From Candidatus Omnitrophota bacterium (lineage in GTDB: Bacteria; Omnitrophota; Gorgyraeia; 2-01-FULL-45-10; JBDRSA01): DNA of 21,947 nt. The notes below the pieces were generated by a model that saw nothing but the letters and a program-made list of their open reading frames with translations, did no database searches and was not told where the DNA came from. Every line of letters begins with the position of its first letter. Positions within the stretch are counted from its first letter, which is position 1. Made by a program: the position numbers and the translations under genes. Positions 1-18,581 of the stretch are shown in pieces. Location of the stretch: positions 1-21,947 of the forward strand of contig JBDRSA010000060.1 in assembly GCA_043825275.1 (NCBI GenBank), written 5' to 3'.

Positions 1-3000
1 CTTGTGCATTCCCGCTACAGCACAAATACCTTCCCGACGTGGGACCTCGCGCAGCCGTTCAGGTTTCTCGCGCATAACGGTGAGATCAATACGCTGAGAG
101 GGAACGTCAATTGGATGCGGGCGAAGGAAGACCTGCTCACAAGCCCGCTTTTCGGGAAAGATATTGAAAAACTGAAGCCGATCATCGTGCCTGGAGGAAG
201 CGACTCCGCGGGAATAGACAATATTTCAGAACTACTGCTTCTTGCGGGAAGGCCGCTTGCCCATGTCGTGATGATGCTTATTCCGCCGGCCTGGGAACAG
301 AACAAGCTCATGGCGAAACATGAGAGAGATTTTTTCCGTTATCACGCCTGCCTCATGGAACCGTGGGACGGCCCCGCGGCGATCGCGATCACCGATGGGA
401 CAAGGATCGGCGCTGTCCTTGACCGGAACGGCCTTCGGCCGGCGCGATACCTTGTCACCAAGCGGGGCTTGATCGTCATGGCCTCGGAGGTCGGCGTTCT
501 CGATATACCGGCGTCTGATATCGCTTATTCAGGGAGGCTCGAGCCGGGCAAGATATTCTTCGTCGATACGGATGAGGGAAGGATCATCGATGACAGCGAG
601 CTAAAAAGGTCCGTCTCGACACGGAGGCCGTACGGGAAATGGGCGAACGACAAACTCGTTGACCTCGAAAAACTGTCGAAACCAAAAGAGAAGACGGAAA
701 AGGTCGCGGATCTGAGCCCGACGCTGAAAGCGTTCGGGTATACGCGCGAAGACATGAAGTTTATCATCCAGCCGATGGCAGCCGACGGTAAAGAGCCTAT
801 CGGCTCGATGGGGAATGATACGCCGCACGCTGTGCTCTCGAAAAAACCTCAGGTCCTCTACAGCTACTTTAAGCAGCTTTTCGCCCAGGTCACGAATCCC
901 GCGATCGACCCCATCCGGGAAGAGCTTGTTATGAGCCTTGAATGTTTTATGGGTTCGCGGAAGAATCTTCTCGATGAGACGCCTGACCACTGCCGGAAGG
1001 TCTGGTTGAAGCATCCTATCCTGACGAACGAGGAACTGTTAAAACTGAAGCATATCAACGAGAGCGGCTTTAAGACGAAGACGATCTCGATCCTTTTTGA
1101 CGCCTCCGACGAGAAGAATATGACAACCGCGCTTGACCGGATCTGCAGGGAGGCGAAAAACGCGATAAAAAAGAAGTACACATTCATCGTCCTGAGCGAC
1201 CGGAGGGTTACCGGGGAAAAAGCGGCTGTGCCGGCGCTCCTGGCGGTCGGGGCGGTCCACCAATATCTGGTAAAAAACGCGTCACGCTCACAGATAGCCC
1301 TGATACTTGAGAGCGCGGAACCGCGTGAGGTACACCACTTCGCGGTACTCCTGGGGTTTGGCGTAGGATGCGTAAACCCCTATTTGGCGTATGAGGCCAT
1401 CGACCGTTTGATCGAAGAAGAGCGCCTGAAGATCGACCGGAAGGCGGCGGTAAAGAATTACATAAAAGCGGTCAACAAGGGGATCATGAAGGTCCTCTCG
1501 AAGATGGGGATCTCAACGATCCAGAGCTACCGCGGGGCCCAGATATTTGAGGCGGTCGGCCTTCACGATGAGACGATCGAACGCTGTTTCGCGGGAACTG
1601 TCTCGCGGATCGGCGGGGTAGGGATCAGGGAGATCGCCCGGGAGACGATCCTTAGACATCGAGAAGCGTTCCCGAAGCGGGAAGGGGCAGGTGACCTTCT
1701 TGAGACCGGAGGTCTTTATCAGTGGAAATTGGACGGCGAATTCCACCTCTGGAATCCGAAAAGTATCGCCGCCATCCAGGACGCCTCAAAGAAGAATGAC
1801 TACATCCGCTATAAGGACTTTTCCCGGCTGATCAACGATCAATCCGAACATCCGACGACGCTCAGAAGCCTTCTATCCTTCAAAAAAAGAAAACCGGTCC
1901 TGCTATCCGAAGTCGAGCCGATATCATCCATTGTTACGCGCTTCGCTACCGGCGCGATGAGCTTTGGCTCGATCTCGCGGGCGGCGCACGAGTCGCTCGC
2001 GATCGCGATGAATAAGCTCGGCGGGAAGTCGAACACGGGGGAAGGCGGCGAGGACCCGGTCCGGTTCATGACACTCCCCTCGGGAGAGTCCGCCCGAAGC
2101 GCGATCAAACAGGTCGCGTCGGGGCGGTTCGGCGTAACGGCTAACTACCTGGTGAACGCCGATGAGCTGCAGATCAAGATCGCCCAGGGAGCGAAGCCCG
2201 GCGAAGGCGGGCAATTACCCGGACACAAAGTGAGCTCGACGATCGCTAAGATACGCTATACGACTCCCGGCGTGACGCTCATTTCGCCGCCGCCGCACCA
2301 TGACATCGATTCGATCGAGGACCTGGCGCAGCTTATCTATGATCTCAAGAACGCCAATCCGCGAGCGCGTATCAGCGTAAAGCTGGTATCTGAAGTCGGC
2401 GTTGGTACGATAGCCGCCGGTGTGGCGAAGGGTCATGCCGATATGATACTTATTTCGGGCGGCGACGGCGGGACGGGAGCGTCGCCGCGGAGCTCGATCA
2501 GGCACGCGGGGCTCCCCTGGGAGCTTGGACTGTCGGAAACCCACCAGACGCTCGTCCTGAACGACCTTCGCAGCAGAGTGCGGCTCCAGACCGACGGCCA
2601 GATGCGAACCGGACGCGATGTCGCGATCGCCGCGATGCTCGGCGCCGAGGAGTACGGGTTCTGTACCGCCGCGCTCATCGTGCTTGGATGCGTTATGCTC
2701 AGGCATTGTCACCTGAACAACTGTTCGGTCGGGATCGCGACACAGGACGACTTACTTCAGAAGCGGTTCCGGGGGAACCCTGAGCATGTCGTGAACTACC
2801 TCTCCTTTGTAGCTCAGGAGCTTCGTGAGATCATGGCCTTGCTCGGCATCAGGAAAGTCGACGAACTGATCGGAAGGACCGATCTTTTGGAGATGAACAA
2901 GTCGATGCTGGATTGGAAGACGCGAGGGCTTGATTTTTCAAAAATACTCTATAGACCGAAGGTCCCCCGGCCGGTTGAAGCATATTGCACAAAACCCCAG

Positions 3001-3840
3001 GATCACGGCATAGAGACTGTCCTTGACAAGGAGCTTTTGCGTCTCGCGAAGAAATCTCTTGAGCATCGGGAGCCGGTCCGCCTGTCGTTTGATATCAACA
3101 ATGTGAACAGGACGACCGGGACGATGCTCTCGGGCGAGGTCTGCAGGCGCTATGGTGAATGGGGGCTTCCCGAAGACACCATTTATTGCAAATTTAAAGG
3201 CGTGGCCGGTCAGAGCTTCGGCGCGTTCCTCGCGAGGGGCATTACCTTTGAGCTCGAAGGGATGGCGAATGATTATATCGGCAAGGGGATCTCAGGCGGC
3301 AGGATCATCGTATATCCGGGGGCGGGGTCGTCGTATAAGCCCGAAGAGAATATCATTATCGGGAATACGTCATTTTATGGAGCGATAAGCGGTGAGGCGT
3401 ACATCCGCGGGATCGCCGGGGAGCGGTTCTGTATCAGGAATTCAGGAATATACGCTGTTGTCGAAGGAGTGGGCGACCACGGCTGTGAATACATGACCGG
3501 CGGAAGGGTCATCGTGCTCGGGAAAACCGGGAGGAATTTCGGCGCCGGGATGTCGGGCGGGATCGCGTATATTTACGATATTGACGGCGACTTTAAGAAT
3601 AAGTGCAATAGGGACATGGTGATCTTCGATCGAATGAACGAAGACGACAGCATCATGATCAAGAACCTTCTTGTCGGACATGTAAAGACTACCAAGAGCG
3701 ACCGGGCCCGCTATCTTCTCGGCAATTTAGAAAGCGAAATGAAGAAGATCGTCAAGGTCATGCCCATAGAGTACAAGAGGGTCCTGGAAGGTAAACAGGT
3801 CGAGCAGTCTCTGGGTTTAGGCGAGGCTTCGGATGGATAG
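1..3840 (+). CDS. gltB: Glutamate synthase large subunit, 5' end outside window
   Basis: Frame is open to the left edge. Protein has HNGEINTLRGNVNWMRA (class II GATase domain part), central FMN domain GGDGGTGASPRSSIRHAGLPWELGL, 3Fe-4S motif CVMLRHCHLNNC, and a C-terminal GXGXG-type beta-helix domain. Confidence 0.97.
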   Translation, partial: LVHSRYSTNTFPTWDLAQPFRFLAHNGEINTLRGNVNWMRAKEDLLTSPLFGKDIEKLKPIIVPGGSDSAGIDNISELLLLAGRPLAHVVMMLIPPAWEQNKLMAKHERDFFRYHACLMEPWDGPAAIAITDGTRIGAVLDRNGLRPARYLVTKRGLIVMASEVGVLDIPASDIAYSGRLEPGKIFFVDTDEGRIIDDSELKRSVSTRRPYGKWANDKLVDLEKLSKPKEKTEKVADLSPTLKAFGYTREDMKFIIQPMAADGKEPIGSMGNDTPHAVLSKKPQVLYSYFKQLFAQVTNPAIDPIREELVMSLECFMGSRKNLLDETPDHCRKVWLKHPILTNEELLKLKHINESGFKTKTISILFDASDEKNMTTALDRICREAKNAIKKKYTFIVLSDRRVTGEKAAVPALLAVGAVHQYLVKNASRSQIALILESAEPREVHHFAVLLGFGVGCVNPYLAYEAIDRLIEEERLKIDRKAAVKNYIKAVNKGIMKVLSKMGISTIQSYRGAQIFEAVGLHDETIERCFAGTVSRIGGVGIREIARETILRHREAFPKREGAGDLLETGGLYQWKLDGEFHLWNPKSIAAIQDASKKNDYIRYKDFSRLINDQSEHPTTLRSLLSFKKRKPVLLSEVEPISSIVTRFATGAMSFGSISRAAHESLAIAMNKLGGKSNTGEGGEDPVRFMTLPSGESARSAIKQVASGRFGVTANYLVNADELQIKIAQGAKPGEGGQLPGHKVSSTIAKIRYTTPGVTLISPPPHHDIDSIEDLAQLIYDLKNANPRARISVKLVSEVGVGTIAAGVAKGHADMILISGGDGGTGASPRSSIRHAGLPWELGLSETHQTLVLNDLRSRVRLQTDGQMRTGRDVAIAAMLGAEEYGFCTAALIVLGCVMLRHCHLNNCSVGIATQDDLLQKRFRGNPEHVVNYLSFVAQELREIMALLGIRKVDELIGRTDLLEMNKSMLDWKTRGLDFSKILYRPKVPRPVEAYCTKPQDHGIETVLDKELLRLAKKSLEHREPVRLSFDINNVNRTTGTMLSGEVCRRYGEWGLPEDTIYCKFKGVAGQSFGAFLARGITFELEGMANDYIGKGISGGRIIVYPGAGSSYKPEENIIIGNTSFYGAISGEAYIRGIAGERFCIRNSGIYAVVEGVGDHGCEYMTGGRVIVLGKTGRNFGAGMSGGIAYIYDIDGDFKNKCNRDMVIFDRMNEDDSIMIKNLLVGHVKTTKSDRARYLLGNLESEMKKIVKVMPIEYKRVLEGKQVEQSLGLGEASDG

Positions 3841-4128: not shown

Positions 4129-5574
4129 ATGGGAGATGTAAAGGGATTCATAAAGGTAGCGCGGCAGAAAGCGCAGTATCGGCCCGTCTGCGAGCGGATC
4201 ATGGATTATAAGGAGATCGCCGTACCGAGAAGCGACGCGAAGTCAAGCGAGCAGGCGTCGCGCTGCATGGATTGCGGCACGCCGTTCTGTCATTGGGGCT
4301 GCTCGGTCGGCAATTTTATCCCTGAGTGGAACGATGCCGTATACGCCGGGCGCTGGAAAGAAGCGTACGAGATGCTCGATTCGACGAACAACCTTCCTGA
4401 AGTGACCGGAAGGATCTGCCCGGCGCTCTGTGAGTATTCCTGCGTATTGGGGATCAACGATGACCCGGTAACGATCAGCGAGAATGAGCTCTCGATCATA
4501 GAATACGCTTTTAAGAATGGATTTGTACAGCCAAGGCCTCCAAAAAAGCGAACAGGAAAAAAAATGGCCGTTATCGGCTCCGGCCCGGCGGGACTTTCGT
4601 GCGCGGCCCAGCTGAATAAAGCCGGCCATACGGTAACGGTATTCGAGAAAGACGATAAGATCGGCGGGATATTGCGCTACGGTATCCCGGATTTTAAACT
4701 TGAAAAATGGATACTCGACCGCCGTATCGCCCTATGGGAGAACGAGGGTGTGCGCTTTACGACGGGTGTGAACGTCGGCGTTGATTATCAGGCGAAAGAG
4801 CTTCTTGAGGAGTTTGACGCGGTAGCTCTGGCGGGCGGATCGCGCCAGCCGCGCGATCTCAGGATCGAAGGGAGAGACCTCAAAGGTATCCATTTCGCGA
4901 TGGACTATCTTATACAATCAAACAGAAGGATCAGCGGGGAGAAGATCCCCGAAAGCCGATTGATTGACGCGAAGGGGAAACGCGTTGTTGTGATCGGCGG
5001 CGGCGATACCGGCTCCGACTGTGTCGGGACGGCCCATCGGCAGGGAGCGGCGTGTGTTGTCCAGGTCGAGCTTTTGGAGCAACCGCCGGAATGCAGGACC
5101 GGTAAACAGCCATGGCCGCTCTATCCGGCGCTTCTCAAAACATCGACAAGTCACCAAGAGGGGGGGGAACGCCACTGGTCCGTGCTTACAAAAAAAATTA
5201 TCGGCGAGAATGGTCGCGTATCGGGGCTTTCGTGCGTTAAAGTGGAATTTTCAAGCAAGAAGGGCCTCTCGTGCCCTATCGTAAAGGAAGTGACCGGTAG
5301 TGCGTTCGATATCGGCGCGGACCTGGTTATTCTGGCGGTCGGCTTTGTCCATCCGGTCCATGACAAATTACTCGCCGACCTGGGCGTCGCCTTTGACGGC
5401 CGCGGAAATGTTAAAGCCGACGACTCTTTTAAGACCGCGAACAAGAAGGTATTCGCCGCCGGGGACATGCGGCGCGGGCAGTCGCTCATTGTTTGGGCGA
5501 TATCAGAAGGCAGGAAAGCGGCGCGGGCTATCGATCTATTTTTAATGGGCTCCTCAAAACTCCTTGATTTTTAG
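4129..5574 (+). CDS. gltD: Glutamate synthase small subunit
   Basis: 481 aa. N-terminal Fe-S region RCMDCGTPFCHWGCSVGNFIPEWND, two dinucleotide-binding motifs (VIGSGPAGLSCAAQL, VVVIGGGDTGSDCVGTAHR), C-terminal AAGDMRRGQSLIVWAISEGRKAA. Confidence 0.97.
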   Translation: MGDVKGFIKVARQKAQYRPVCERIMDYKEIAVPRSDAKSSEQASRCMDCGTPFCHWGCSVGNFIPEWNDAVYAGRWKEAYEMLDSTNNLPEVTGRICPALCEYSCVLGINDDPVTISENELSIIEYAFKNGFVQPRPPKKRTGKKMAVIGSGPAGLSCAAQLNKAGHTVTVFEKDDKIGGILRYGIPDFKLEKWILDRRIALWENEGVRFTTGVNVGVDYQAKELLEEFDAVALAGGSRQPRDLRIEGRDLKGIHFAMDYLIQSNRRISGEKIPESRLIDAKGKRVVVIGGGDTGSDCVGTAHRQGAACVVQVELLEQPPECRTGKQPWPLYPALLKTSTSHQEGGERHWSVLTKKIIGENGRVSGLSCVKVEFSSKKGLSCPIVKEVTGSAFDIGADLVILAVGFVHPVHDKLLADLGVAFDGRGNVKADDSFKTANKKVFAAGDMRRGQSLIVWAISEGRKAARAIDLFLMGSSKLLDF

Positions 5575-5621: not shown

Positions 5622-5650
5622 TTGACAGTTGTGAGCAAAATGTAGATAAT
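5622..5650 (+). promoter_or_regulatory. Sigma70-like promoter upstream of the NuoE-like gene
   Basis: TTGACA (5622-5627), 17-nt spacer, GATAAT (5645-5650), with an AT-rich upstream region. Confidence 0.75.
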
Positions 5651-5748: not shown

Positions 5749-6243
5749 ATGGCGACCAAAACAGTGAAAAGAATCAACTCTATTCTCAAGAACAGAGAAA
5801 AGAATCCACGTGAATTGATCGAAGTCCTCCAGGATGTCCAGGCAACTTTTAAGTATCTTCCAGAGCAGGAGTTGCGGATCGTTTCTGAAAAGCTGAATGT
5901 CCCCCTCATCGAAGTCTTCAGGGTCGCAAATTTTTATAAAGCGTTCACTTTGAAGCCGCGCGGCAAGCACCTGGTGACGGTATGCATGGGAACCGCATGC
6001 CACGTTCGGGGAGCGCCGAAGTTTGTCGATGAGGTTCTCGGGCAGCTCAGTATAAAACCGGGCGAGACTACCGAAGACGGCATGTTTACCGTTGAGACGG
6101 TGAACTGCCTCGGCGCGTGCGCTCTTGGCCCGATTGTCGTGCTCGATGGAACGTACCATGACCACATGACTACGGGGAAGCTGCGGGATTTGATTCAGAG
6201 CGTTACAAAGAAGAAGAAAGGTAGAAAGCGACGCCATGGTTAA
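5749..6243 (+). CDS. NuoE/HydC/HndA-like [2Fe-2S] thioredoxin-fold subunit
   Basis: 164 aa, with VCMGTACHVRGAP...VNCLGACALGPIVVLDGTYH, the CX4C...CX3C pattern of this family. Confidence 0.93.
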   Translation: MATKTVKRINSILKNREKNPRELIEVLQDVQATFKYLPEQELRIVSEKLNVPLIEVFRVANFYKAFTLKPRGKHLVTVCMGTACHVRGAPKFVDEVLGQLSIKPGETTEDGMFTVETVNCLGACALGPIVVLDGTYHDHMTTGKLRDLIQSVTKKKKGRKRRHG

Positions 6244-8089
6244 GATTCGGACTTTAAAGGATTTAGAATTTCTAGCTAAAAAAACTCGGGACTTAAGCAA
6301 AAAAAAGGCGATGACGGTCATTCTGTCGTCGGGGACGTGCGGTCAGGCGTGCGGGTCGTTGCATGTCGCTGATAAGCTTCGAAAAGAGATCGCGAGAAAA
6401 AAGCTAGAGAAAAAAGTAAATGTACGGATAACGGGATGCCACGGATTCTGTGAGCAGGAACCGTTGATGGTTGTTGAGCCTGAAAATATCTTTTATTGTC
6501 ACGTCAAACCCGATGATATTTTGGAAATTGTGTCTGAGACACTTCAGCGGGGGAGGGTAGTTGATAGGTTGCTCTATGTTGACCCGACAATAGGTAAGAA
6601 AATAGAAAAGGAAAAAGATATCCCGTTCTATAAAGCCCAGGAAAGGATCGTCCTCGGACAGAATAAACTTGTCGATCCGTGTAATATCCATGACTACGTT
6701 GAGAACGGTGGATATTCGGCATTTATAAAAGCCTTGAATTCAATGAAACCGGAAGAGGTTATCGAAGAAGTTAAGAAGTCGGGGCTCCGAGGCAGGGGCG
6801 GCGGCGGATTTCTTACCGGGAAGAAGTGGGAGCATTGCCGCAAAGCGGAAGGGGAGCCTAAATATGTCATCTGTAACGCGGATGAAGGAGATCCGGGGGC
6901 GTATATGGACAGGAGTGTGCTGGAGGGCAATCCTCACGAGGTTATCGAGGGGATGCTCATCGGCGCGTTCGCGATCGGCGCCCGCCACGGCTACATCTAT
7001 GTCAGGAACGAGTATCCGCTCGCGGTCCAGCACGCTAAATTTGCCGTGCAGCAGGCGGAAGAGCTGGGGCTTATCGGCGATGATATCCTCGGAAGCGGTT
7101 TCTCGTTCGATATCAGGATCGCGCGCGGCGGCGGCGCGTTTGTATGCGGTGAGTCGACCGCGTTGATGGCATCGCTTGAAGGAAAAGTTGGCGAACCGCG
7201 CGCGAAAGATGTCCATACGACCGACAAGGGGTTGCACGACCTTCCCACAAACCTGAATAATGTCGAAACGTGGGCGAATGTGCCGTTGATCATCAAAAAC
7301 GGCGCGAAGTGGTTTTCGTCGAAGGGGACCAAACAGAGTAAGGGCACCAAGATATTCGCCCTGACCGGGCAGATACGTAACACGGGCCTCGTTGAGATTC
7401 CTATGGGGATGAGTTTACGTAAAATTATCTATAAAATTGGCGGCGGTCCGGCAGTAGGAAGGAAGATAAAGGCGGTTCAGACAGGGGGGCCGTCAGGAGG
7501 ATGCCTGCCGGAACGCTTATTTGATCTGCCGGTCGACTTCGAGGCCCTGGACAAGGCGGGTTCGATGGTCGGCTCCGGCGGGATGGTCGTTATGGATGAG
7601 TCGACCTGTATGGTCGACGTCGCGAAGTATTTTCTGAAGTTTCTCATTGACGAGTCGTGCGGTAAATGTGTTCCGTGCAGGGTCGGACTCAGCCGCATGC
7701 TGGAGATCATCACCGACATCACCGAAGGAAGGGGCACGGAAGAGAAATTGGCGCTCCTCGAAGAGACGGCGCGTACCGTGTCGCTTGGTTCGCTCTGCGC
7801 GCTGGGGAAAACCGCCCCGAATCCCGTTCTTTCTACGATAAAGTACTTCAGGACGGAATACGAGTCGCATATCGCCAAAAAGAAATGTACCGCCGGCGTT
7901 TGCAGAGAGCTGATCAGCTACGCGATCGACGCGAAAAAGTGTACCGGGTGCGGCGTATGTCTGCGCGGCTGTCCGCATGGCGCCATTTCCGGGAAGGCGA
8001 AATCGGCGCATTCTATAGACAGAACGCGATGCAGCAAATGCGGCATTTGCAAAGAACAGTGCAGGTTTAACGCTATCGACGTGTTGTAA
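6236..8089 (+). CDS. NuoF/HydB/HndC-like flavoprotein subunit with N-terminal [2Fe-2S] and C-terminal 2x[4Fe-4S] domains
   Basis: 617 aa. N-terminal SGTCGQACGS...GCHGFCEQEP; core SGLRGRGGGGFLTGKKWEHC, CNADEGDPGAYMDR, GAFVCGESTALMASLEG, ESCGKCVPCRVG; C-terminal CTGCGVCLRGCP and CSKCGICKEQC. Overlaps the upstream gene by 8 nt. Confidence 0.94.
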   Translation: MVKIRTLKDLEFLAKKTRDLSKKKAMTVILSSGTCGQACGSLHVADKLRKEIARKKLEKKVNVRITGCHGFCEQEPLMVVEPENIFYCHVKPDDILEIVSETLQRGRVVDRLLYVDPTIGKKIEKEKDIPFYKAQERIVLGQNKLVDPCNIHDYVENGGYSAFIKALNSMKPEEVIEEVKKSGLRGRGGGGFLTGKKWEHCRKAEGEPKYVICNADEGDPGAYMDRSVLEGNPHEVIEGMLIGAFAIGARHGYIYVRNEYPLAVQHAKFAVQQAEELGLIGDDILGSGFSFDIRIARGGGAFVCGESTALMASLEGKVGEPRAKDVHTTDKGLHDLPTNLNNVETWANVPLIIKNGAKWFSSKGTKQSKGTKIFALTGQIRNTGLVEIPMGMSLRKIIYKIGGGPAVGRKIKAVQTGGPSGGCLPERLFDLPVDFEALDKAGSMVGSGGMVVMDESTCMVDVAKYFLKFLIDESCGKCVPCRVGLSRMLEIITDITEGRGTEEKLALLEETARTVSLGSLCALGKTAPNPVLSTIKYFRTEYESHIAKKKCTAGVCRELISYAIDAKKCTGCGVCLRGCPHGAISGKAKSAHSIDRTRCSKCGICKEQCRFNAIDVL

Positions 8090-8187
8090 AAGTGGAGGGA
8101 TGATAGCGTATTAAATACAGTATTGGCCGGGCAATGGAGCCCGACGAGAGTGGTCAAGAAGACTAAGAAGTCGAAATGGAGGCGATG

Positions 8188-8883
8188 ATGCCTGCGTATG
8201 TAACGCTTACAATCGATGGAGCATTCGTGCGGGTACCGCGTAGTACCTCAGTGCTGGATGCGGCCTTAACAAGCGGGATCTGTATACCGCATCTGTGTCA
8301 TATGAATGGCGTTACCCCGATCGGCGCGTGCCGGATCTGTATCGTTGAATTGGTCAAGAACGGCAGATCAAAAGTTACCGCGTCGTGTACGCTCGAAGCT
8401 GAAGAAGGTATGGTTATTCTTGCCCATTCGAAAAAGATACTGCGGGCGCGGAAAAACATCGCGGAAATGCTCGTTGCTGAAGCTCCGAATTCGCGCGCAA
8501 TTCAGGACATCGCTGTCCGATGCGGCGTCAAAGAGGTGCGATATCCTTTTCGCAGGAATGATTGCGTTTTGTGCGGTAGGTGTGTGCGCGCCTGCGATGA
8601 GATATGGCGGTCTAAGTCACTGGGTTTTGTCGGCCGCGGGCCGGAGCGCCATGTCGCGCTGCCGTTCGATAAACGGCCGGAATATTGTAAGCGATGCAAC
8701 GCCTGTATCGATGTGTGTCCGATGACGATCACGCCGTGCTCCGGACCCATGAAGCCGGGCGAAGAGGCCCTGTGCGGGATGTGCGAGTCACAGTTATCGA
8801 TGGCTGAAAAGATCGAAGACACCTGTGTCGATTGCAGACTGGGAGACGGGTTCCATTGCGCGAGAAAAAGTTCTTACAGTTAA
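8188..8883 (+). CDS. NuoG-N-terminus / HoxU / HydA-N-terminus-like Fe-S subunit, no catalytic domain
   Basis: ORF opens at 8176, but GGAGG at 8178-8182 favours the ATG at 8188. Plant-type 2Fe-2S motif (CIPHLCHMNGVTPIGACRIC...C), ferredoxin-like CVLCGRCVRAC and CKRCNACIDVCP, and extra C-terminal cysteines (CGMC...CVDC...C). Confidence 0.85.
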   Translation: MPAYVTLTIDGAFVRVPRSTSVLDAALTSGICIPHLCHMNGVTPIGACRICIVELVKNGRSKVTASCTLEAEEGMVILAHSKKILRARKNIAEMLVAEAPNSRAIQDIAVRCGVKEVRYPFRRNDCVLCGRCVRACDEIWRSKSLGFVGRGPERHVALPFDKRPEYCKRCNACIDVCPMTITPCSGPMKPGEEALCGMCESQLSMAEKIEDTCVDCRLGDGFHCARKSSYS

Positions 8884-8909
8884 CGGCATGATGAGACAAG
8901 GAGAAGAAC

Positions 8910-10502
8910 ATGAATCTGCAGCAACCGAACGCAAATGATGTAACACAGACGGCGAACAGGTCGCGGAATGTCGTCCCTACCTCAGGGCTCTGTACGCGAT
9001 GTATCGACGGATGCCGCGGCAATTGCGAAGTATTCAAAGCAAGCTTTCGCGGCCGCGAAGTGATCTATCCCGGCCCATTCGGGGAAATTACGGCAGGAGG
9101 CGACAAGAATTACCCGATCGATTATTCGCATCTCAATATTCAGGGATATGCCATGGGGGCGAAAGGTTTGCCGAAAGGGGTTGAAGGTAATCCCGATACC
9201 GCGATATTTCCGGCGGTAGATACCGAGACCGAATACGGCTGGGATGAGAAGGTGAAGTTGAGGATCCCCGCGTTTACGGGAGCGCTCGGGTCGACCGAGA
9301 TCGCGAGGAAGAACTGGGAGCACTTCGCGATCGGAGCGGCTATTTCCGGAGTTACCCTTGTTTGCGGTGAAAATGTCTGCGGTATCGATCCAAAACTGGA
9401 GCTCGACAAACATGGCAAGATCAAGAAGGCCCCGGACATGGACCGCAGGATCGAGACGTACCGGCGATTCCACGAGGGCTACGGCGAAATCCTTGTCCAG
9501 ATGAACGTCGAAGATACCCGTCTCGGCGTCGCTGAATACGTCAGCAAGAAGCACAAGCTTGAAACTATAGAGCTGAAGTGGGGGCAGGGCGCGAAGTGTA
9601 TCGGCGGAGAGATCAAAGTCGAGAGCCTCGACCGCGCGCTTGAGCTGAAGAAGAGAGGCTATATCGTTACGCCGGATCCGTCCGTAAAATCGGTTCAGAA
9701 AGCGTATAAGCATGGCGCGATCAGGGAGTTCGAGCGTCATTCACGTCTCGGGTTCGTTACCGAAGAGGCATTTTTTGCGGAGATCAAACGGCTTAGAGAC
9801 ATCGGATTCAAACGTATTACGCTGAAGACCGGCGCCTATCCGATGCGTGAGCTTGCCATGGCGATCAAGTATAGTTCTTTGGCCAAGATAGATCTTTTAA
9901 CCATAGACGGCGCGCCGGGCGGAACGGGGATGAGCCCCTGGCGGATGATGGAAGAGTGGGGCGTGCCTACCTTCTATCTGCAGTCGATGACGCATGAGAT
10001 ATGTGAGCGGCTCGCGAGAAAGGGCATGCGCATTCCCGATATCGCCATAGCCGGCGGCTTCTCAACAGAAGATCACCTATTCAAAGTGCTGTCGATGGGA
10101 GCGCCGTACGTGAAAGCGGTCTGTATGGGAAGGGCCTTTATGATCCCGGGCATGGTCGGTAAGAATATCGGCTACTGGATCGAAAGCAAAGATCTTCCGC
10201 AGACGGTTTCCCGTTTCGGGAAGACGCCGAATGAGATATTTGTCTGCTATGACGAGCTTGCCGAGAAGTACGGGAAGGACATAAAAAATATTCCGCTCGG
10301 GGCCTTGGGAATCTACAGTTTTTCCCAGAAGCTCAAGGTTGGCCTGCAGCAGCTTATGGCCGGCAGCAGGAATTTCAGGCTCAGCACCATTACCAGGAAT
10401 GATGTGATGGCGCTCACCGAAGAAGCAGCGAGAGTATCGGGGATCCCCTTTATTATGGATGCTTTTCGCAAGGAGATGGAGGAGATCGTCGAGGCAAGGT
10501 AA
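8910..10502 (+). CDS. FMN-binding glutamate-synthase-domain (GltS central domain-like) protein
   Basis: 530 aa, good SD (AAGGAGA). LELKWGQGAKCIGGEIK, LTIDGAPGGTGMSPWRM and IAGGFSTEDHLFKVLSMGAPYVKAVCMGRAFM match the glutamate synthase FMN/TIM-barrel domain. Extra N-terminal CTRCIDGCRGNC. Confidence 0.87.
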   Translation: MNLQQPNANDVTQTANRSRNVVPTSGLCTRCIDGCRGNCEVFKASFRGREVIYPGPFGEITAGGDKNYPIDYSHLNIQGYAMGAKGLPKGVEGNPDTAIFPAVDTETEYGWDEKVKLRIPAFTGALGSTEIARKNWEHFAIGAAISGVTLVCGENVCGIDPKLELDKHGKIKKAPDMDRRIETYRRFHEGYGEILVQMNVEDTRLGVAEYVSKKHKLETIELKWGQGAKCIGGEIKVESLDRALELKKRGYIVTPDPSVKSVQKAYKHGAIREFERHSRLGFVTEEAFFAEIKRLRDIGFKRITLKTGAYPMRELAMAIKYSSLAKIDLLTIDGAPGGTGMSPWRMMEEWGVPTFYLQSMTHEICERLARKGMRIPDIAIAGGFSTEDHLFKVLSMGAPYVKAVCMGRAFMIPGMVGKNIGYWIESKDLPQTVSRFGKTPNEIFVCYDELAEKYGKDIKNIPLGALGIYSFSQKLKVGLQQLMAGSRNFRLSTITRNDVMALTEEAARVSGIPFIMDAFRKEMEEIVEAR

Positions 10503-10538: not shown

Positions 10539-10567
10539 TTGACAATGAGGCCGTGAAGGAGTAGAAT
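10539..10567 (+). promoter_or_regulatory. Sigma70-like promoter upstream of carA
   Basis: TTGACA (10539-10544), 17-nt spacer, TAGAAT (10562-10567). Confidence 0.75.
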
Positions 10568-11992: not shown

Positions 11993-13474
11993 ATGCCAAA
12001 AAGAACTGATATAAAAAAGATACTGATCATCGGCTCCGGGCCGATCGTGATAAGCCAGGCCTGCGAGTTCGACTATTCCGGCACCCAGGCCTGCAAAGCG
12101 CTCCGTGAAGACGGGTACAAAGTAGCCCTTATTAATTCAAATCCCGCTACGATCATGACCGACCCCGATATGGCGGATGCGACGTATATTGAGCCGATAA
12201 CGCCGGAAGTCGTCGAGAAGATCATCGAGAAAGAACGGCCCGACGCGATCCTGCCGACGCTTGGCGGGCAGACCGGGCTCAATACGGCCATGAAGATCTG
12301 CGAAATGGGCGTTCTCAAGAAGTACAACGTGAAGATGATCGGCGCGAATTATAATGTTATCAGGAAAGCCGAAAACAGGAACGATTTCAAAAAGGCGATG
12401 CTGAAGATCGGCCTCGACCTGCCGAAGAGCATGCTCGCGCATAGCATGAACGGCGCGCGGAAAGCTCTTAAAAAGATAGGCCTTCCGGTCATTATCCGGC
12501 CGAGTTTTACGCTCGGGGGCACCGGCGGCGGGATCGCGACGACGAAAGAAGAGTTCGAGTATATCGTTGCCCTGGGGCTCAAAAACAGTATGACCAGCGA
12601 GGTCCTGATCGAGGAGTCGATCGTCGGGTGGAAAGAGTACGAGCTCGAAGTGATGCGCGACATAAAAGACAACGTCGTTATTGTCTGTTCGATCGAGAAT
12701 CTCGATCCGATGGGGATCCACACGGGGGACTCGATCACGGTCGCGCCGCAGCAGACCCTGACCGACCGTGAGTATCAGACGATGCGCGACGCGGCGATCG
12801 CGATCATGCGTGAGATCGGCGTCGCGACGGGCGGGTCGAACGTACAGTTCGCCGTGAATCCCAAAAACGGAAGGATGGTCGTTATCGAGATGAATCCGCG
12901 CGTATCGAGGAGCTCCGCGCTCGCCAGTAAAGCGACCGGGTTTCCGATCGCGAAGTTCGCGGCGAAGCTTGCCGTCGGTTATACGCTCGATGAGATACAG
13001 AACGACATAACGAAAGAGACGCCGGCTTCGTTCGAGCCGACGATTGATTACTGCGTCGTGAAGATCCCGAGATTTACGTTCGAGAAGTTTCCCGAAGCGA
13101 AGGATATCCTCGGTATTTCCATGAAATCGGTCGGAGAAACGATGGCGATCGGCAGGACGTTCAAGGAAGCGATCCAGAAAGGATTACGCGGTTTAGAGAT
13201 CGGCCATGTCGGGCTCGACAACAAGAAATCGTTCAGGAAGATACCGGACAGCAAGATGTACAAGCGCCTGAAAGAGCCGAACGCGTCGAGAATATTCTAC
13301 GTAAAATACGCCCTTCAGAGGGGGATGAGCGTCAGGAAGCTCGCGGATATTACCGGTATCGACCCCTGGTTCATTCACAACATTAAAGAGATCGTCGATC
13401 TGGAGAAAAAGATAAAACAGGTTGCCAGTTGCCAGTTGCCAGAAAACAGAGAAAAAAATTCCCGCTGCCGATAG
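11993..13474 (+). CDS. carB: Carbamoyl-phosphate synthase large subunit copy 1, N-terminal half (frame disrupted)
   Basis: 493 aa. [81 protein letters not shown]. Coding similarity to CarB ends at EKKIKQ (13420), followed by 17 novel codons and a stop. Confidence 0.9.
13421..13449. repeat. 29-nt insertion with 3x GTTGCCA tandem heptamers inside carB1
   Basis: AAAACAG | GTTGCCA GTTGCCA GTTGCCA GAAAACAG | AG... The direct repeat AAAACAG occurs at 13414-13420 and 13443-13449. Excision restores frame and expected CarB length. Confidence 0.9.
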
Positions 13475-15231
13475 ACCTTCTAAAAAAGGCGAAGGAATTT
13501 GGGTTCAGTGACTGCCAGATAGCGGAGCTCATTGGTTCAGACGAGCTTGCTGTTCGCGGAGGTCGAAAAAAACTGGGTGTCCAGGCGACCTTTAAACTGG
13601 TCGATACCTGCGCGGCCGAGTTTGAGGCGTATACGCCGTATTACTATTCGACGTATGAATCCGAAGACGAATCGCGCCCTTCGAAAAAGAAGAAGATCAT
13701 GATATTGGGCGGCGGGCCGAACAGGATCGGACAGGGGATCGAGTTTGACTATTGCTGCTGCCACGCTTCGTTCGCGCTGAAAGAGCTTGGTTATGAGACA
13801 ATCATGGTGAACTCAAATCCCGAGACCGTATCGACCGATTACGACACTTCCGACAAGCTCTATTTTGAGCCGCTTACATTTGAAGACGTGATGAACATTG
13901 TCGACAGAGAAAGGCCGGATGGGGTAATAGTCCAATTCGGCGGGCAGACGCCTTTGAATCTCGCTAAAAAACTCCTTGACGCGGGTGTCCCCATAATCGG
14001 CACCTCGGTCAGATCTATCGATAACGCTGAAGACAGGGACAAGTTCGCGAAGCTTATCAGAAAGCTGAAGATCGACCAGCCGCCAAACGGCTCCGCGACC
14101 TCAGGAGAGGAAGCGCTGAAGATCGCGCGGCGGATCGGATACCCGATCCTGGTGCGGCCGTCATATGTGCTCGGCGGAAGGTCCATGAGGATCGTTTATA
14201 ACGATTCGTCGCTGAAAACTTTTATTAAAGAGGCCGCGGATACTTCACGGGAGCTTCCGATCCTGATAGACAAATTCCTTGAGGATGCCGTTGAGGTCGA
14301 CGTCGACGCGATTTCAGACGGAACGATGACCGTTATCGGCGGTATCATGGAGCACATTGAGGAAGCCGGGGTTCATTCCGGCGACTCGGCATGCGTGCTT
14401 CCGCCGCATACGCTGAGCGATGAGATCATCAATACGATACGGGATCATACGATCGCGATCTCAAAAGAGCTTAAAGTCGTCGGCCTTTTGAACATTCAGT
14501 TCGCGGTTAAAAACGATGTGGTATTTGTCCTCGAGGTAAACCCGAGGGCGTCGAGAACCGTGCCGTTCGTCAGCAAAACGATCGGTGTCCCGCTCGCGAA
14601 ACTCGCGGCAAAGGTTATGACGGGAAAGACCCTGCGTGAACTCGGATTCACCAAAGAAAAGCATATTGAACATATTTCGGTAAAGGAATCGGTGCTTCCG
14701 TTCTCAAGGTTTTCAGGAGTCGATATACTGCTCGGGCCTGAGATGAAGTCGACCGGCGAGGTCATGGGTATCGATACTTCGTTCGGCGTGGCCTTCTATA
14801 AAGCGCAGGCCGCGGCTGGACACGTCCTTCCGAAAAGCGGCAAAGTTTTTATCAGCGTCAAGAATGACGATAAGCGCGACGTGGTCTTTCTCGCGAAGAG
14901 ATTATGCGACATCGGATTTGAGATCCTCGCGACAAAAGGGACCGCCAAGGTTTTCAGGTCAAATGCCATAAAAGCAAAAACGCTCGGGAAGATCGGTGAG
15001 GGGCACACCGAACTGCTGGACCTTATCAAAAAGGGTGAGATACATCTTATTATTAATACTCCATCGGGCCAGCGGGGGCAGTCTGACATGAAGCCGATCC
15101 GCAGCCTTGCGGTCCTGCAGGGGATACCGTGCATAACGACGATCCAGGGAGCTCAGGCGACGGTAAACGGCATTGATTCAATAGCGAAAAAAGAACTTAC
15201 GGTCCGATCGATCCAGGAGTATCTTTCTTGA
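13429..15231 (+). CDS. carB: Carbamoyl-phosphate synthase large subunit copy 1, C-terminal half (offset -1 relative to the N-half)
   Basis: 600 aa. [91 protein letters not shown], complete C-terminal MGS-like allosteric domain. TTG at 13429 is only a nominal start. True CarB similarity starts near 13450. Confidence 0.88.
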
Positions 15232-15300: not shown

Positions 15301-15353
15301 AATGTGCTGATAAATCATAGAGAATGTTGTTGTTCAATCGAGAAGGAGAGGAC

Positions 15354-18565
<3,212 letters not shown>

Positions 18566-18581
<16 letters not shown>

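Follow-up and report, generated by a model that had tools for sequence, protein, structure and literature searches.

Contig JBDRSA010000060.1 of a Candidatus Omnitrophota bacterium (assembly GCA_043825275.1), analysed here over its whole length of 21,947 nucleotides (the window), carries four tightly packed plus-strand open reading frames (ORFs) at positions 5749-10502, encoding proteins similar to NuoE, NuoF, the N-terminal part of NuoG and the flavin mononucleotide (FMN)-binding domain of glutamate synthase (GltS). The question raised by this locus is which enzyme is formed by the first three products, designated BfuC, BfuB and BfuA, and whether the fourth, a GltS-like protein, is their catalytic partner. 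The answer favoured here, with a probability of about 0.55, is that the four products assemble into a single soluble complex of the bifurcating Bfu (HydABC) type, which would feed electrons from NADH and ferredoxin to a GltS-like reductase involved in nitrogen assimilation. This reading builds on the domain content of the proteins, the Bfu motifs, the homology to the GltS barrel, the synteny across phyla and the nitrogen-related genomic context. The bfuC gene overlaps bfuB by 8 nt (spacing -8) and the following spacings are 86 and 26 nt, versus 174 nt to the upstream gltD and 173 nt to the downstream carA. Both the ORFs and the Pfam domains agree with an earlier interpretation of the DNA alone (the sequence-only reading), which had described a NuoE/NuoF/NuoG-N-like/GltS-like cassette between gltBD and carA; its description of the sequence proved right on all points that could be tested.

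BfuC contains four Cys residues (79, 84, 120, and 124) within its PF01257 domain match, the pattern of one [2Fe-2S] cluster (Table 1). BfuB comprises PF01512, PF10589 and SLBB domains, a weak N-terminal match to PF01257 (residues 22-101) and a C-terminal Fer4 domain (563-614); its N-terminal [2Fe-2S] motif is formed by Cys35/39/68/72, and the [4Fe-4S] motif of NuoF (B1) by Cys475/478/481/521. The best PDB matches of BfuB, all over the full length, are 7t2r_B (3e-227), 8a6t_B and 9mqx_B (1.5e-223), which represent BfuB of the A. mobile NiFe-, the T. kivui/A. woodii FeFe- and the WorABCSL enzymes. Complex I NuoF aligns to the central part of BfuB alone in the PDB sequence search. The HydB/HndC layout proposed for this protein from the sequence, with an N-terminal [2Fe-2S] and two C-terminal [4Fe-4S] motifs, is thus corroborated.

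Sequence features that separate bifurcating BfuB from the non-bifurcating NuoF, HoxF and FdhB were defined by Schut et al. (2022), with the consensus xCNxDEGDPGA(F/Y)MDR at the NADH site and G(A/G)GAFVCGE at the FMN site, in which the Phe is replaced by Tyr in non-bifurcating homologs (supplement of Schut et al., 2022). The NADH-site motif of the window BfuB equals the Bfu form (e.g., VCNADEGDPGAYMDRS of Cb FeFe) and differs from that of the non-bifurcating Nqo, Hox and Fdh, and the core of its FMN-site motif, GGGAFVCGESTALM, fits the Por- and FdhH2-Bfu rows of Supplementary Figure 10 of the same work. All 1,558 Bfu sequences share the B2 site, which consists of Cys438, His525, Cys531 and Cys536 in A. 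mobile BfuB (Schut et al., 2022). Three of these ligands are recognized in the window protein with identical spacing, and the fourth is probably Cys458, located upstream of them and placed by position rather than by an explicit alignment. As far as its sequence tells, BfuB bears every Bfu diagnostic feature of Schut et al. (2022), in line with the earlier suggestion of a candidate electron-bifurcating complex, and bifurcation or confurcation can be predicted for the window complex. The N-module of complex I (NuoEFG) or a HoxEFU diaphorase does not account for the trio: the NCBIfam scores for NuoF, NuoE, HoxE and HoxU all fall below cut-off, and the extra Bfu clusters are present. No nuo or hydrogenase genes were found in the window by the domain annotation.

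BfuA consists of a [2Fe-2S] domain and a ferredoxin dicluster with two CX2CX2CX3C motifs. A Pfam scan revealed no H-cluster or molybdopterin domain in it, as had been noted for this electron-wire subunit before, and the H-x3-C-x2-C-x5-C motif of a His-ligated cluster is absent from its sequence. An alternative start at position 8188, the coordinate given by the sequence-only reading, lies within the ORF listed in Table 1, and translation may begin there. The best PDB match (1.5e-33, residues 9-188) is 9mqx_A, the 247-aa WorA. WorA is a BfuA lacking the catalytic C-terminal domain; its C terminus consists of a zinc finger with four Cys ligands and of an adaptor helix, by which the catalytic WorSL module is brought within 10.7 Å of cluster A4 (PMC12318220). 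The C terminus of the window BfuA is a Cys-rich tail, in which Cys188, 200, 203, 217 and 220 are invariant in 25 homologs and Cys228 is nearly so. A similar tail, with some Cys positions shifted, is present in BfuA of the paralogous (group 2) cassettes described below. By its sequence BfuA is a WorA-like Type-2 subunit, with no His-ligated cluster, no A5 cluster or catalytic C-terminal domain, and a separate adjacent catalytic gene. A Type-2 BfuA lacks the A3 and A5 clusters and works with separate catalytic subunits, and in the scheme of Schut et al. (2022) it denotes a Bfu core without a third redox partner of its own. Since the trio thus has no third-substrate site of its own, it needs a partner.

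The candidate for this role is the GltS-like protein encoded immediately downstream. Its PF01645 match is limited to residues 286-412 (51.3 bits, with a cut-off of 20.4), and neither NCBIfam nor PDB sequence searches returned a match. The amidotransferase (PF00310), central (PF04898) and GXGXG (PF01493) domains, all found in GltB of the window, are absent, and so is the 3Fe-4S motif CX5CX4C, which is also present in the window GltB; Cys405 is the sole Cys in this region. As the PDB search was empty and the profile and hhalign comparisons were weak, the two proteins were compared by Smith-Waterman alignment, with shuffled sequences as the control. The local alignment with the barrel of the window GltB scored 102.5, and shuffled sequences scored 42.6 +/- 7.7. 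It covers the barrel, pairing TGALGST with TGAMSFG, GENVCGIDP with GEG-GEDP, ELKWGQGAK-CIGGE with QIKIAQGAKPGEGGQ and DGAPGGTGMSP with GGDGGTGASP. With the numbering of ferredoxin-dependent GltS (Fd-GltS) mapped through 1llw/1ofd and 1ea0 alignments, Glu154 of the protein corresponds to Glu903. We take Lys972 of Fd-GltS to be the catalytic residue and Glu903, Gln978 and Arg992 to be those of the 2-oxoglutarate site. The invariant N-terminal four-Cys motif probably binds a cluster, presumably of the [4Fe-4S] type. The AlphaFold2 (AF2) model shows a TIM barrel of moderate confidence (predicted local distance difference test, pLDDT, of 70) with the N-terminal 100 residues disordered or unresolved. 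By this sequence comparison the protein is homologous to the synthase barrel of GltS, though divergent; the FMN glutamate-synthase domain recognized in the sequence-only reading is therefore upheld, both by the barrel alignment to GltB and by the PF01645 match, which is partial and above cut-off. A relative of 800 aa, P0340, combines a 2x[4Fe-4S] ferredoxin domain, an F420-binding FrhB domain and a domain of the GltS-like family. This natural fusion shows that the GltS-like domain is an electron-accepting catalytic unit with interchangeable donors.

The GltS-like family is very large, with at least 8,000 scored homologs at E <= 0.001 in either homolog search, forming a handful of full-length clusters at 50% clustering. 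Orthologs of the window protein (group 1) share 72-89% identity with it across bacteria and archaea; the value is 72-83% for those from Planctomycetes, Dehalococcoidia, Thermodesulfobacteriota, Nitrospiraceae, Methanoperedens, Methanothrix, Bathyarchaeia, Altiarchaeales and an Asgard archaeon. An equally widespread paralogous group 2 is about 50% identical to group 1, with at least 70% identity between members from Methanoperedens and those from Aminicenantes, Thermoplasmatales, Petrotogales and WOR-3. Linkage to the trio was examined from the trio side in 16 metagenome loci with a BfuA 65-81% identical to that of the window and enough downstream sequence to be informative, and the GltS-like gene follows bfuA directly in 13 of them. 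For group 2 the order bfuC-bfuB-bfuA-gltS was found in nine of nine loci, from Aminicenantes, Acidobacteriota, Edwardsbacteria and one further bacterium, and from Thermoplasmatales, a Halobacteriota archaeon, Methanoperedens, a Methanosarcinales archaeon and Altiarchaeales. The occurrence of the same gene order in so many unrelated lineages indicates that the arrangement is not due to chance. No hydrogenase or other dehydrogenase gene recurs near the related cassettes, in support of the pairing made in the sequence-only reading. Trios near L060 and L069 were left out of the cassette counts, as their BfuA proteins are longer or different: in the former, BfuA is extended far at the C terminus and has the motif of a His-ligated cluster, and the latter has a different C-terminal region.

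Four loci contain two GltS-like paralogs around one Bfu trio (L027:4476-11584, L037:5039-11584, L101:1251-8948, and L103:3649-10340). The arrangements comprise a group 2-group 1 tandem, a group 2 cassette divergent from the group 1 gene, and a third paralog upstream with group 1 downstream. The group 1 gene immediately adjoins the group 2 cassette in Methanoperedens and Altiarchaeales; in L101 and L103 the third paralog precedes bfuC and the group 1 gene follows bfuA. These loci hint at complexes, in some cases, with two different GltS-like subunits. The Edwardsbacteria cassette (L112:774-7581) is interrupted by several small ORFs, with a gene for a 23S rRNA intervening-sequence protein located between bfuA and the GltS-like gene.

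The genomic environment places the GltS-like enzyme in nitrogen assimilation. The 146 immediate neighbours of group 1 genes include 13 GAF-ANTAR regulators, 7 copies of the archaeal nitrogen repressor NrpR, 7 glutamate dehydrogenases (GDH), 5 glutamine synthetases (GS), 5 CTP synthases, 6 class-I amidotransferases and 6 GltD-like proteins, and tblastn detected gltBD, carAB, purF and guaA near group 1 genes in many loci. The group 2 cassette of a Halobacteriota archaeon (L111:465-10892) is followed by nifH-PII-PII-nifDK, and another is preceded by genes for GS and an AsnC regulator. A gene coding for about 230-250 aa is located directly upstream of the GltS-like gene in L009, L011, L013-L015, L017, L018, L024, L025, L031 and L033; judging from size and position, rather than from confirmation at each locus, these genes would correspond to the GAF-ANTAR hits. 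In the window, this slot is occupied by the Bfu trio.

For the physical assembly, the electron path and the reaction itself (its substrate, its direction and the use of bifurcation or confurcation), the following scheme can be proposed. The BfuB and BfuC core would bind NADH at its FMN and exchange electrons with ferredoxin. BfuA, as a Type-2 Fe-S wire, would hand electrons over to a separate module, as WorA does. The N-terminal cluster of the GltS-like protein would accept them from BfuA and deliver them to the FMN in the TIM barrel, where a 2-oxo or 2-imino acid would be reduced. The likeliest reaction would be the conversion of 2-oxoglutarate and free ammonia to glutamate. Since an amidotransferase or glutaminase domain is lacking, any glutamate-forming reaction would use free ammonia; 2-oxoglutarate and ammonia are probably the substrates, and this is the weakest link of the proposal. 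The 2-oxoglutarate + ammonia/glutamate couple (approximately -0.13 V from the GDH equilibrium) lies well above NADH. Being far more positive than NADH, this couple would allow the complex to run in the confurcating direction only. NADH and reduced ferredoxin would then be oxidized together, pulling the amination forward without ATP, and the added driving force could permit assimilation of ammonium at low concentration, sparing the ATP spent by GS. Group 1 enzymes without a trio are presumably fed directly by ferredoxin or flavodoxin, with the trio being an add-on.

Several observations weigh against this reading. The GltS-like family profile reaches GltS at E = 0.6, and the hhalign alignment with the window GltB is restricted to the C-terminal half. 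The position of Gln978 of Fd-GltS is occupied by an invariant Glu234, and Arg992 aligns ambiguously, with Arg242 or Arg249 nearby. The top Foldseek matches of the model in the PDB are FMN alpha-hydroxy-acid oxidases (TM ~0.5), not GltS, a modelling result that fits an FMN barrel and has no power to identify the substrate. The AF2 model of BfuA (pLDDT 52) is too poor for use, so that the equivalence of its tail to the WorA zinc finger and helix is inferred by analogy. Canonical GltS is poor at using free ammonia, and gltBD is already present in this organism. BfuA is encoded directly upstream of the group 1 gene in one (L029) of 69 species-representative loci with at least 900 bp of upstream sequence, and a short-BfuA trio lies within 10 kb of the group 1 gene in 7 of 80 loci. 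Three trios (L098, L099 and L102) have no GltS-like gene downstream, so that a physical partnership may not be obligate. The conserved co-occurrence of the trio and the GltS-like gene, on which the sequence-only reading had made its pairing depend, therefore holds from the trio side, including group 2, but not from the side of the GltS-like group to which the window belongs: the trio depends on the GltS-like gene, and the window-type GltS-like gene does not depend on the trio. As group 1 genes mostly occur without it, the group 1 enzyme appears to be independent of the trio, which would serve as an optional electron-input module. With this qualification, the pairing of an NAD(P)H/ferredoxin trio with a GltS-like flavin is supported by the Bfu motifs, the WorA-like BfuA and the presence of the cassette in different phyla.

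An alternative explanation of the locus, with which the scarcity of trios near group 1 genes agrees, is that the genes are co-regulated and their products form no complex. BfuABC would then be a free NADH:ferredoxin oxidoreductase adjusting the ferredoxin pool, the GltS-like enzyme would use soluble ferredoxin, and the adjacency would reflect a shared nitrogen regulon alone. The three trios lacking the GltS-like gene are compatible with this explanation, and so is the neighbour-joining tree, in which group 2 is entirely cassette-linked, but linkage within group 1 is found in three separate subclades, the window being in one of them, and was thus repeatedly gained or lost. However, according to the published scheme any Bfu core whose BfuA is of Type 2 is without its own third redox partner, and NADH alone is unable to reduce ferredoxin. 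The position of the GltS-like gene, fixed right after bfuA across bacterial and archaeal phyla, and the conservation of the Cys-rich tail of BfuA also speak against it. Co-regulation without a complex is therefore considered unlikely.

A complex may also be formed and act on another substrate (a 2-oxo or 2-hydroxy acid, an imine, or a nitro or N-oxide compound), with the nitrogen context being loosely related. Such a role is suggested by the similarity of the model to lactate, glycolate and mandelate FMN enzymes, by the confinement of PF01645 to a part of the protein together with a faint NMO match, and by the Gln978 to Glu replacement, the ambiguous Arg992 equivalent and the absence of an NCBIfam assignment. 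It is nevertheless regarded as improbable, because the QGAK, GExxG and GGTGxSP motifs are specific to GltS, as are the distances between them, the neighbours are mainly glutamate and glutamine enzymes and nitrogen regulators, and the FrhB-linked relatives were proposed to be glutamate synthases (PMC3448663).

The third alternative, in which the trio donates electrons to the upstream GltB, replacing or supplementing GltD, with the GltS-like gene being an unrelated neighbour, agrees with the order gltB-gltD-bfuC-bfuB-bfuA in the window and with the match of the N terminus of BfuA to the GltD-fusion family model PRK12814 in the NCBIfam scan, but is very improbable and was rejected as contradicted by synteny: the 174-nt spacer between gltD and bfuC carries a promoter-like site, and no gltB or gltD occurs upstream of the trio in seven related loci (L087, L089, L090, L092, L096, L101, and L103) or in the group 2 cassettes, so that GltBD is not a conserved partner.

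The sequence-only reading had proposed comparison of the cassette with the HydABC, StnABC and Bfu families. In this comparison the Bfu motifs are present and the nearest known system is WorABCSL of Acetomicrobium mobile (PDB 9MQX), a Type-2 Bfu enzyme. The two share the BfuB/BfuC core architecture, a short BfuA with a Cys-rich tail and without His-ligated or A5 clusters and a catalytic domain, and catalysis in a separate module encoded beside bfuA. The partner is, however, a tungstopterin protein WorL with a polyferredoxin WorS in A. mobile and a single FMN/Fe-S GltS-like protein here, the third couple probably lies at a far higher potential than aldehyde/acid, and the zinc finger and helix of BfuA are putative in the window. 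The Bfu classes recognized by Schut et al. (2022) are FeFe-, NiFe-, Nfn-, Fdh-, F420-, Wor-, Por-, Codh-, Bam-, Mbh-, Nuo- and Rub-Bfu. The window complex resembles them in the diagnostic features of BfuB and BfuC and in the attachment of the third-substrate module via BfuA, and it would join the high-potential Nuo- and Rub-Bfu (Table 1 of Schut et al., 2022) as an enzyme that works by confurcation only. No GltS-type or nitrogen-assimilation partner is given in the text, Table 1 or Supplementary Table 1 of that work. The later structural and genomic Bfu literature likewise revealed no GltS-type partner, and no link between Bfu or NuoEF and GltS was found in a search that did not cover all journals. 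In NfnABC/StnABC (Nfn-Bfu), which has the same BfuBC core, BfuA is fused to a GltD-like module. The part recruited there is the NADPH-binding GltD/NfnL FAD domain on BfuA (Type 1), whereas the window cassette has a GltB-type FMN barrel as a separate subunit. The BfuA-GltD fusion indicates that Bfu cores have recruited glutamate synthase parts before.

Compared to GltB and Fd-GltS (PDB 1EA0, 1OFD), the GltS-like protein has a homologous FMN TIM barrel with the GAxSxG-like, GExxG, QGAK and GGTGxSP motifs in the same order, and glutamate/glutamine metabolism is the genomic context of both. It differs in the absence of the Ntn amidotransferase, central and GXGXG domains, in the N-terminal CX2CX3CX3C motif instead of the 3Fe-4S motif CX5CX4C, and in Glu at the position of Gln978, and its similarity at the profile level is marginal. 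Putative F420H2-dependent glutamate synthases of methanogens (FGltS) were proposed from gene context (Kaster et al., 2011; Susanti and Mukhopadhyay, 2012). Like the window cassette, they pair a GltS-type catalytic unit with a dedicated non-GltD electron-input module; P0340, in which FrhB is fused directly to a domain of the GltS-like family, fits this idea. The input module is FrhB (F420H2) in FGltS and the Bfu trio (NADH and ferredoxin) here; FGltS is itself a prediction and is described as glutamine-dependent. A Pfam scan found no FrhB domain in the window, which separates the cassette from FGltS.

Both the Bfu principle and the GltS fold are known, and it is their combination and the orphan GltS-like family that appear to be undescribed. 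In the known Bfu enzymes, what is coupled to NADH and ferredoxin is hydrogen, formate, NADPH, an aldehyde or one of a few further substrates, and a GltS-like partner would link this type of energy coupling to nitrogen assimilation. If the partnership is true, it would offer a first clue to the function of this very large family of orphan proteins, which is frequent in little-understood anaerobes such as Omnitrophota, Aminicenantes, Dehalococcoidia, Methanoperedens, Methanothrix, Bathyarchaeia and Asgard archaea. The small size of the cassette and the presence of its group 2 version in organisms of enrichment cultures (e.g., Methanoperedens) make the prediction directly testable. A bolder and rather doubtful proposal is that the complex is a confurcating, ammonia-dependent glutamate synthase constituting a third, ATP-independent route of ammonium assimilation at very low ammonium. 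From Omnitrophota to Methanoperedens, anaerobes starved of energy would use such a route, and its ferredoxin-only form would be represented by the GltS-like orthologs that stand alone and exceed 70% identity between bacteria and archaea. Nitrogen assimilation would then join the reactions powered by Bfu-type electron bifurcation.

Table 1. Genes, motifs and candidate sites of the Bfu/GltS-like cassette and its upstream flank (window positions)
Feature	Position	Strand	Remarks
gltB	4-3840	+	5' end cut
gltD	4129-5574	+	
Promoter-like site TTGACA-17-GATAAT, gltD-bfuC spacer	5622..5650	+	11/12 matches
bfuC, NuoE/HoxE-like thioredoxin-fold [2Fe-2S] subunit, 164 aa	5749..6243	+	PF01257 3e-46
bfuB, HydB-type NuoF, 617 aa	6236..8089	+	Pfam, full-length PDB matches, motifs
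BfuB NADH-site motif DEGDPGAYMDR, residues 216-226	6881..6913	+	Same as Bfu form
BfuB FMN-site motif GGGAFVCGESTAL, residues 298-310	7127..7165	+	Phe, not Tyr
BfuB B2/Zn site His545-x5-Cys551-x4-Cys556	7868..7903	+	Spacing equal to A. mobile
BfuB C-terminal ferredoxin domain, two CX2CX2CX3C (569-579, 599-609)	7940..8062	+	B3/B4 clusters
bfuA, short NuoG-N-like subunit, 235 aa	8176..8883	+	PF13510 + Fer4
BfuA C-terminal Cys-rich tail (Cys188, 200, 203, 217, 220, 228)	8737..8859	+	Candidate zinc finger/docking element
GltS-FMN-like protein, 530 aa	8910..10502	+	Candidate catalytic (third-substrate) subunit; partial PF01645
GltS-like N-terminal CX2CX3CX3C (Cys28, 31, 35, 39)	8991..9026	+	Candidate [4Fe-4S] entry cluster; invariant in both paralog groups
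GltS-like QGAK motif, residues 226-229	9585..9596	+	Lys229 = Lys972 of Fd-GltS; invariant in family
GltS-like GGTGMSP motif, residues 337-343	9918..9938	+	= GltB GGTGASP, FMN phosphate-binding region; invariant

The promoter-like site upstream of bfuC has one counterpart in the region, a sigma-70-like site also matching at 11/12 positions in the spacer between the GltS-like gene and carA (10539-10567). The total number of matches in the scan is not above that in shuffled sequences, and the promoters of Omnitrophota are uncharacterised; together, the promoter and terminator scans lend weak support to the operon boundaries.

All large ORFs of the contig are located on the plus strand in the order gltB, gltD, the cassette, carA, a split carB, an intact carB, guaA and purF. 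The genes around the cassette thus form a one-strand run of glutamate- or glutamine-using enzymes (4-21788), making the contig an unusually dense nitrogen island. Two ORFs in different frames, coding for 493 aa and 600 aa and overlapping by 46 nt, make up the split carB gene adjacent to carA (11993-15231). At the break, near 13421-13474, the 7-nt sequence GTTGCCA is repeated three times in tandem and an A-run follows; the ortholog in L007 is a single ORF. These features point to a frameshift by slippage, or to an error of assembly, more than to a split gene of the Aquifex type. The second carB paralog (15324-18581) is intact and shares 16 nt with guaA; its product of 1085 aa is about 53% identical to that of the split gene. 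This second paralog adjoins the GltS-like gene in L001, L026, L032 and L087, which are other Omnitrophota loci.

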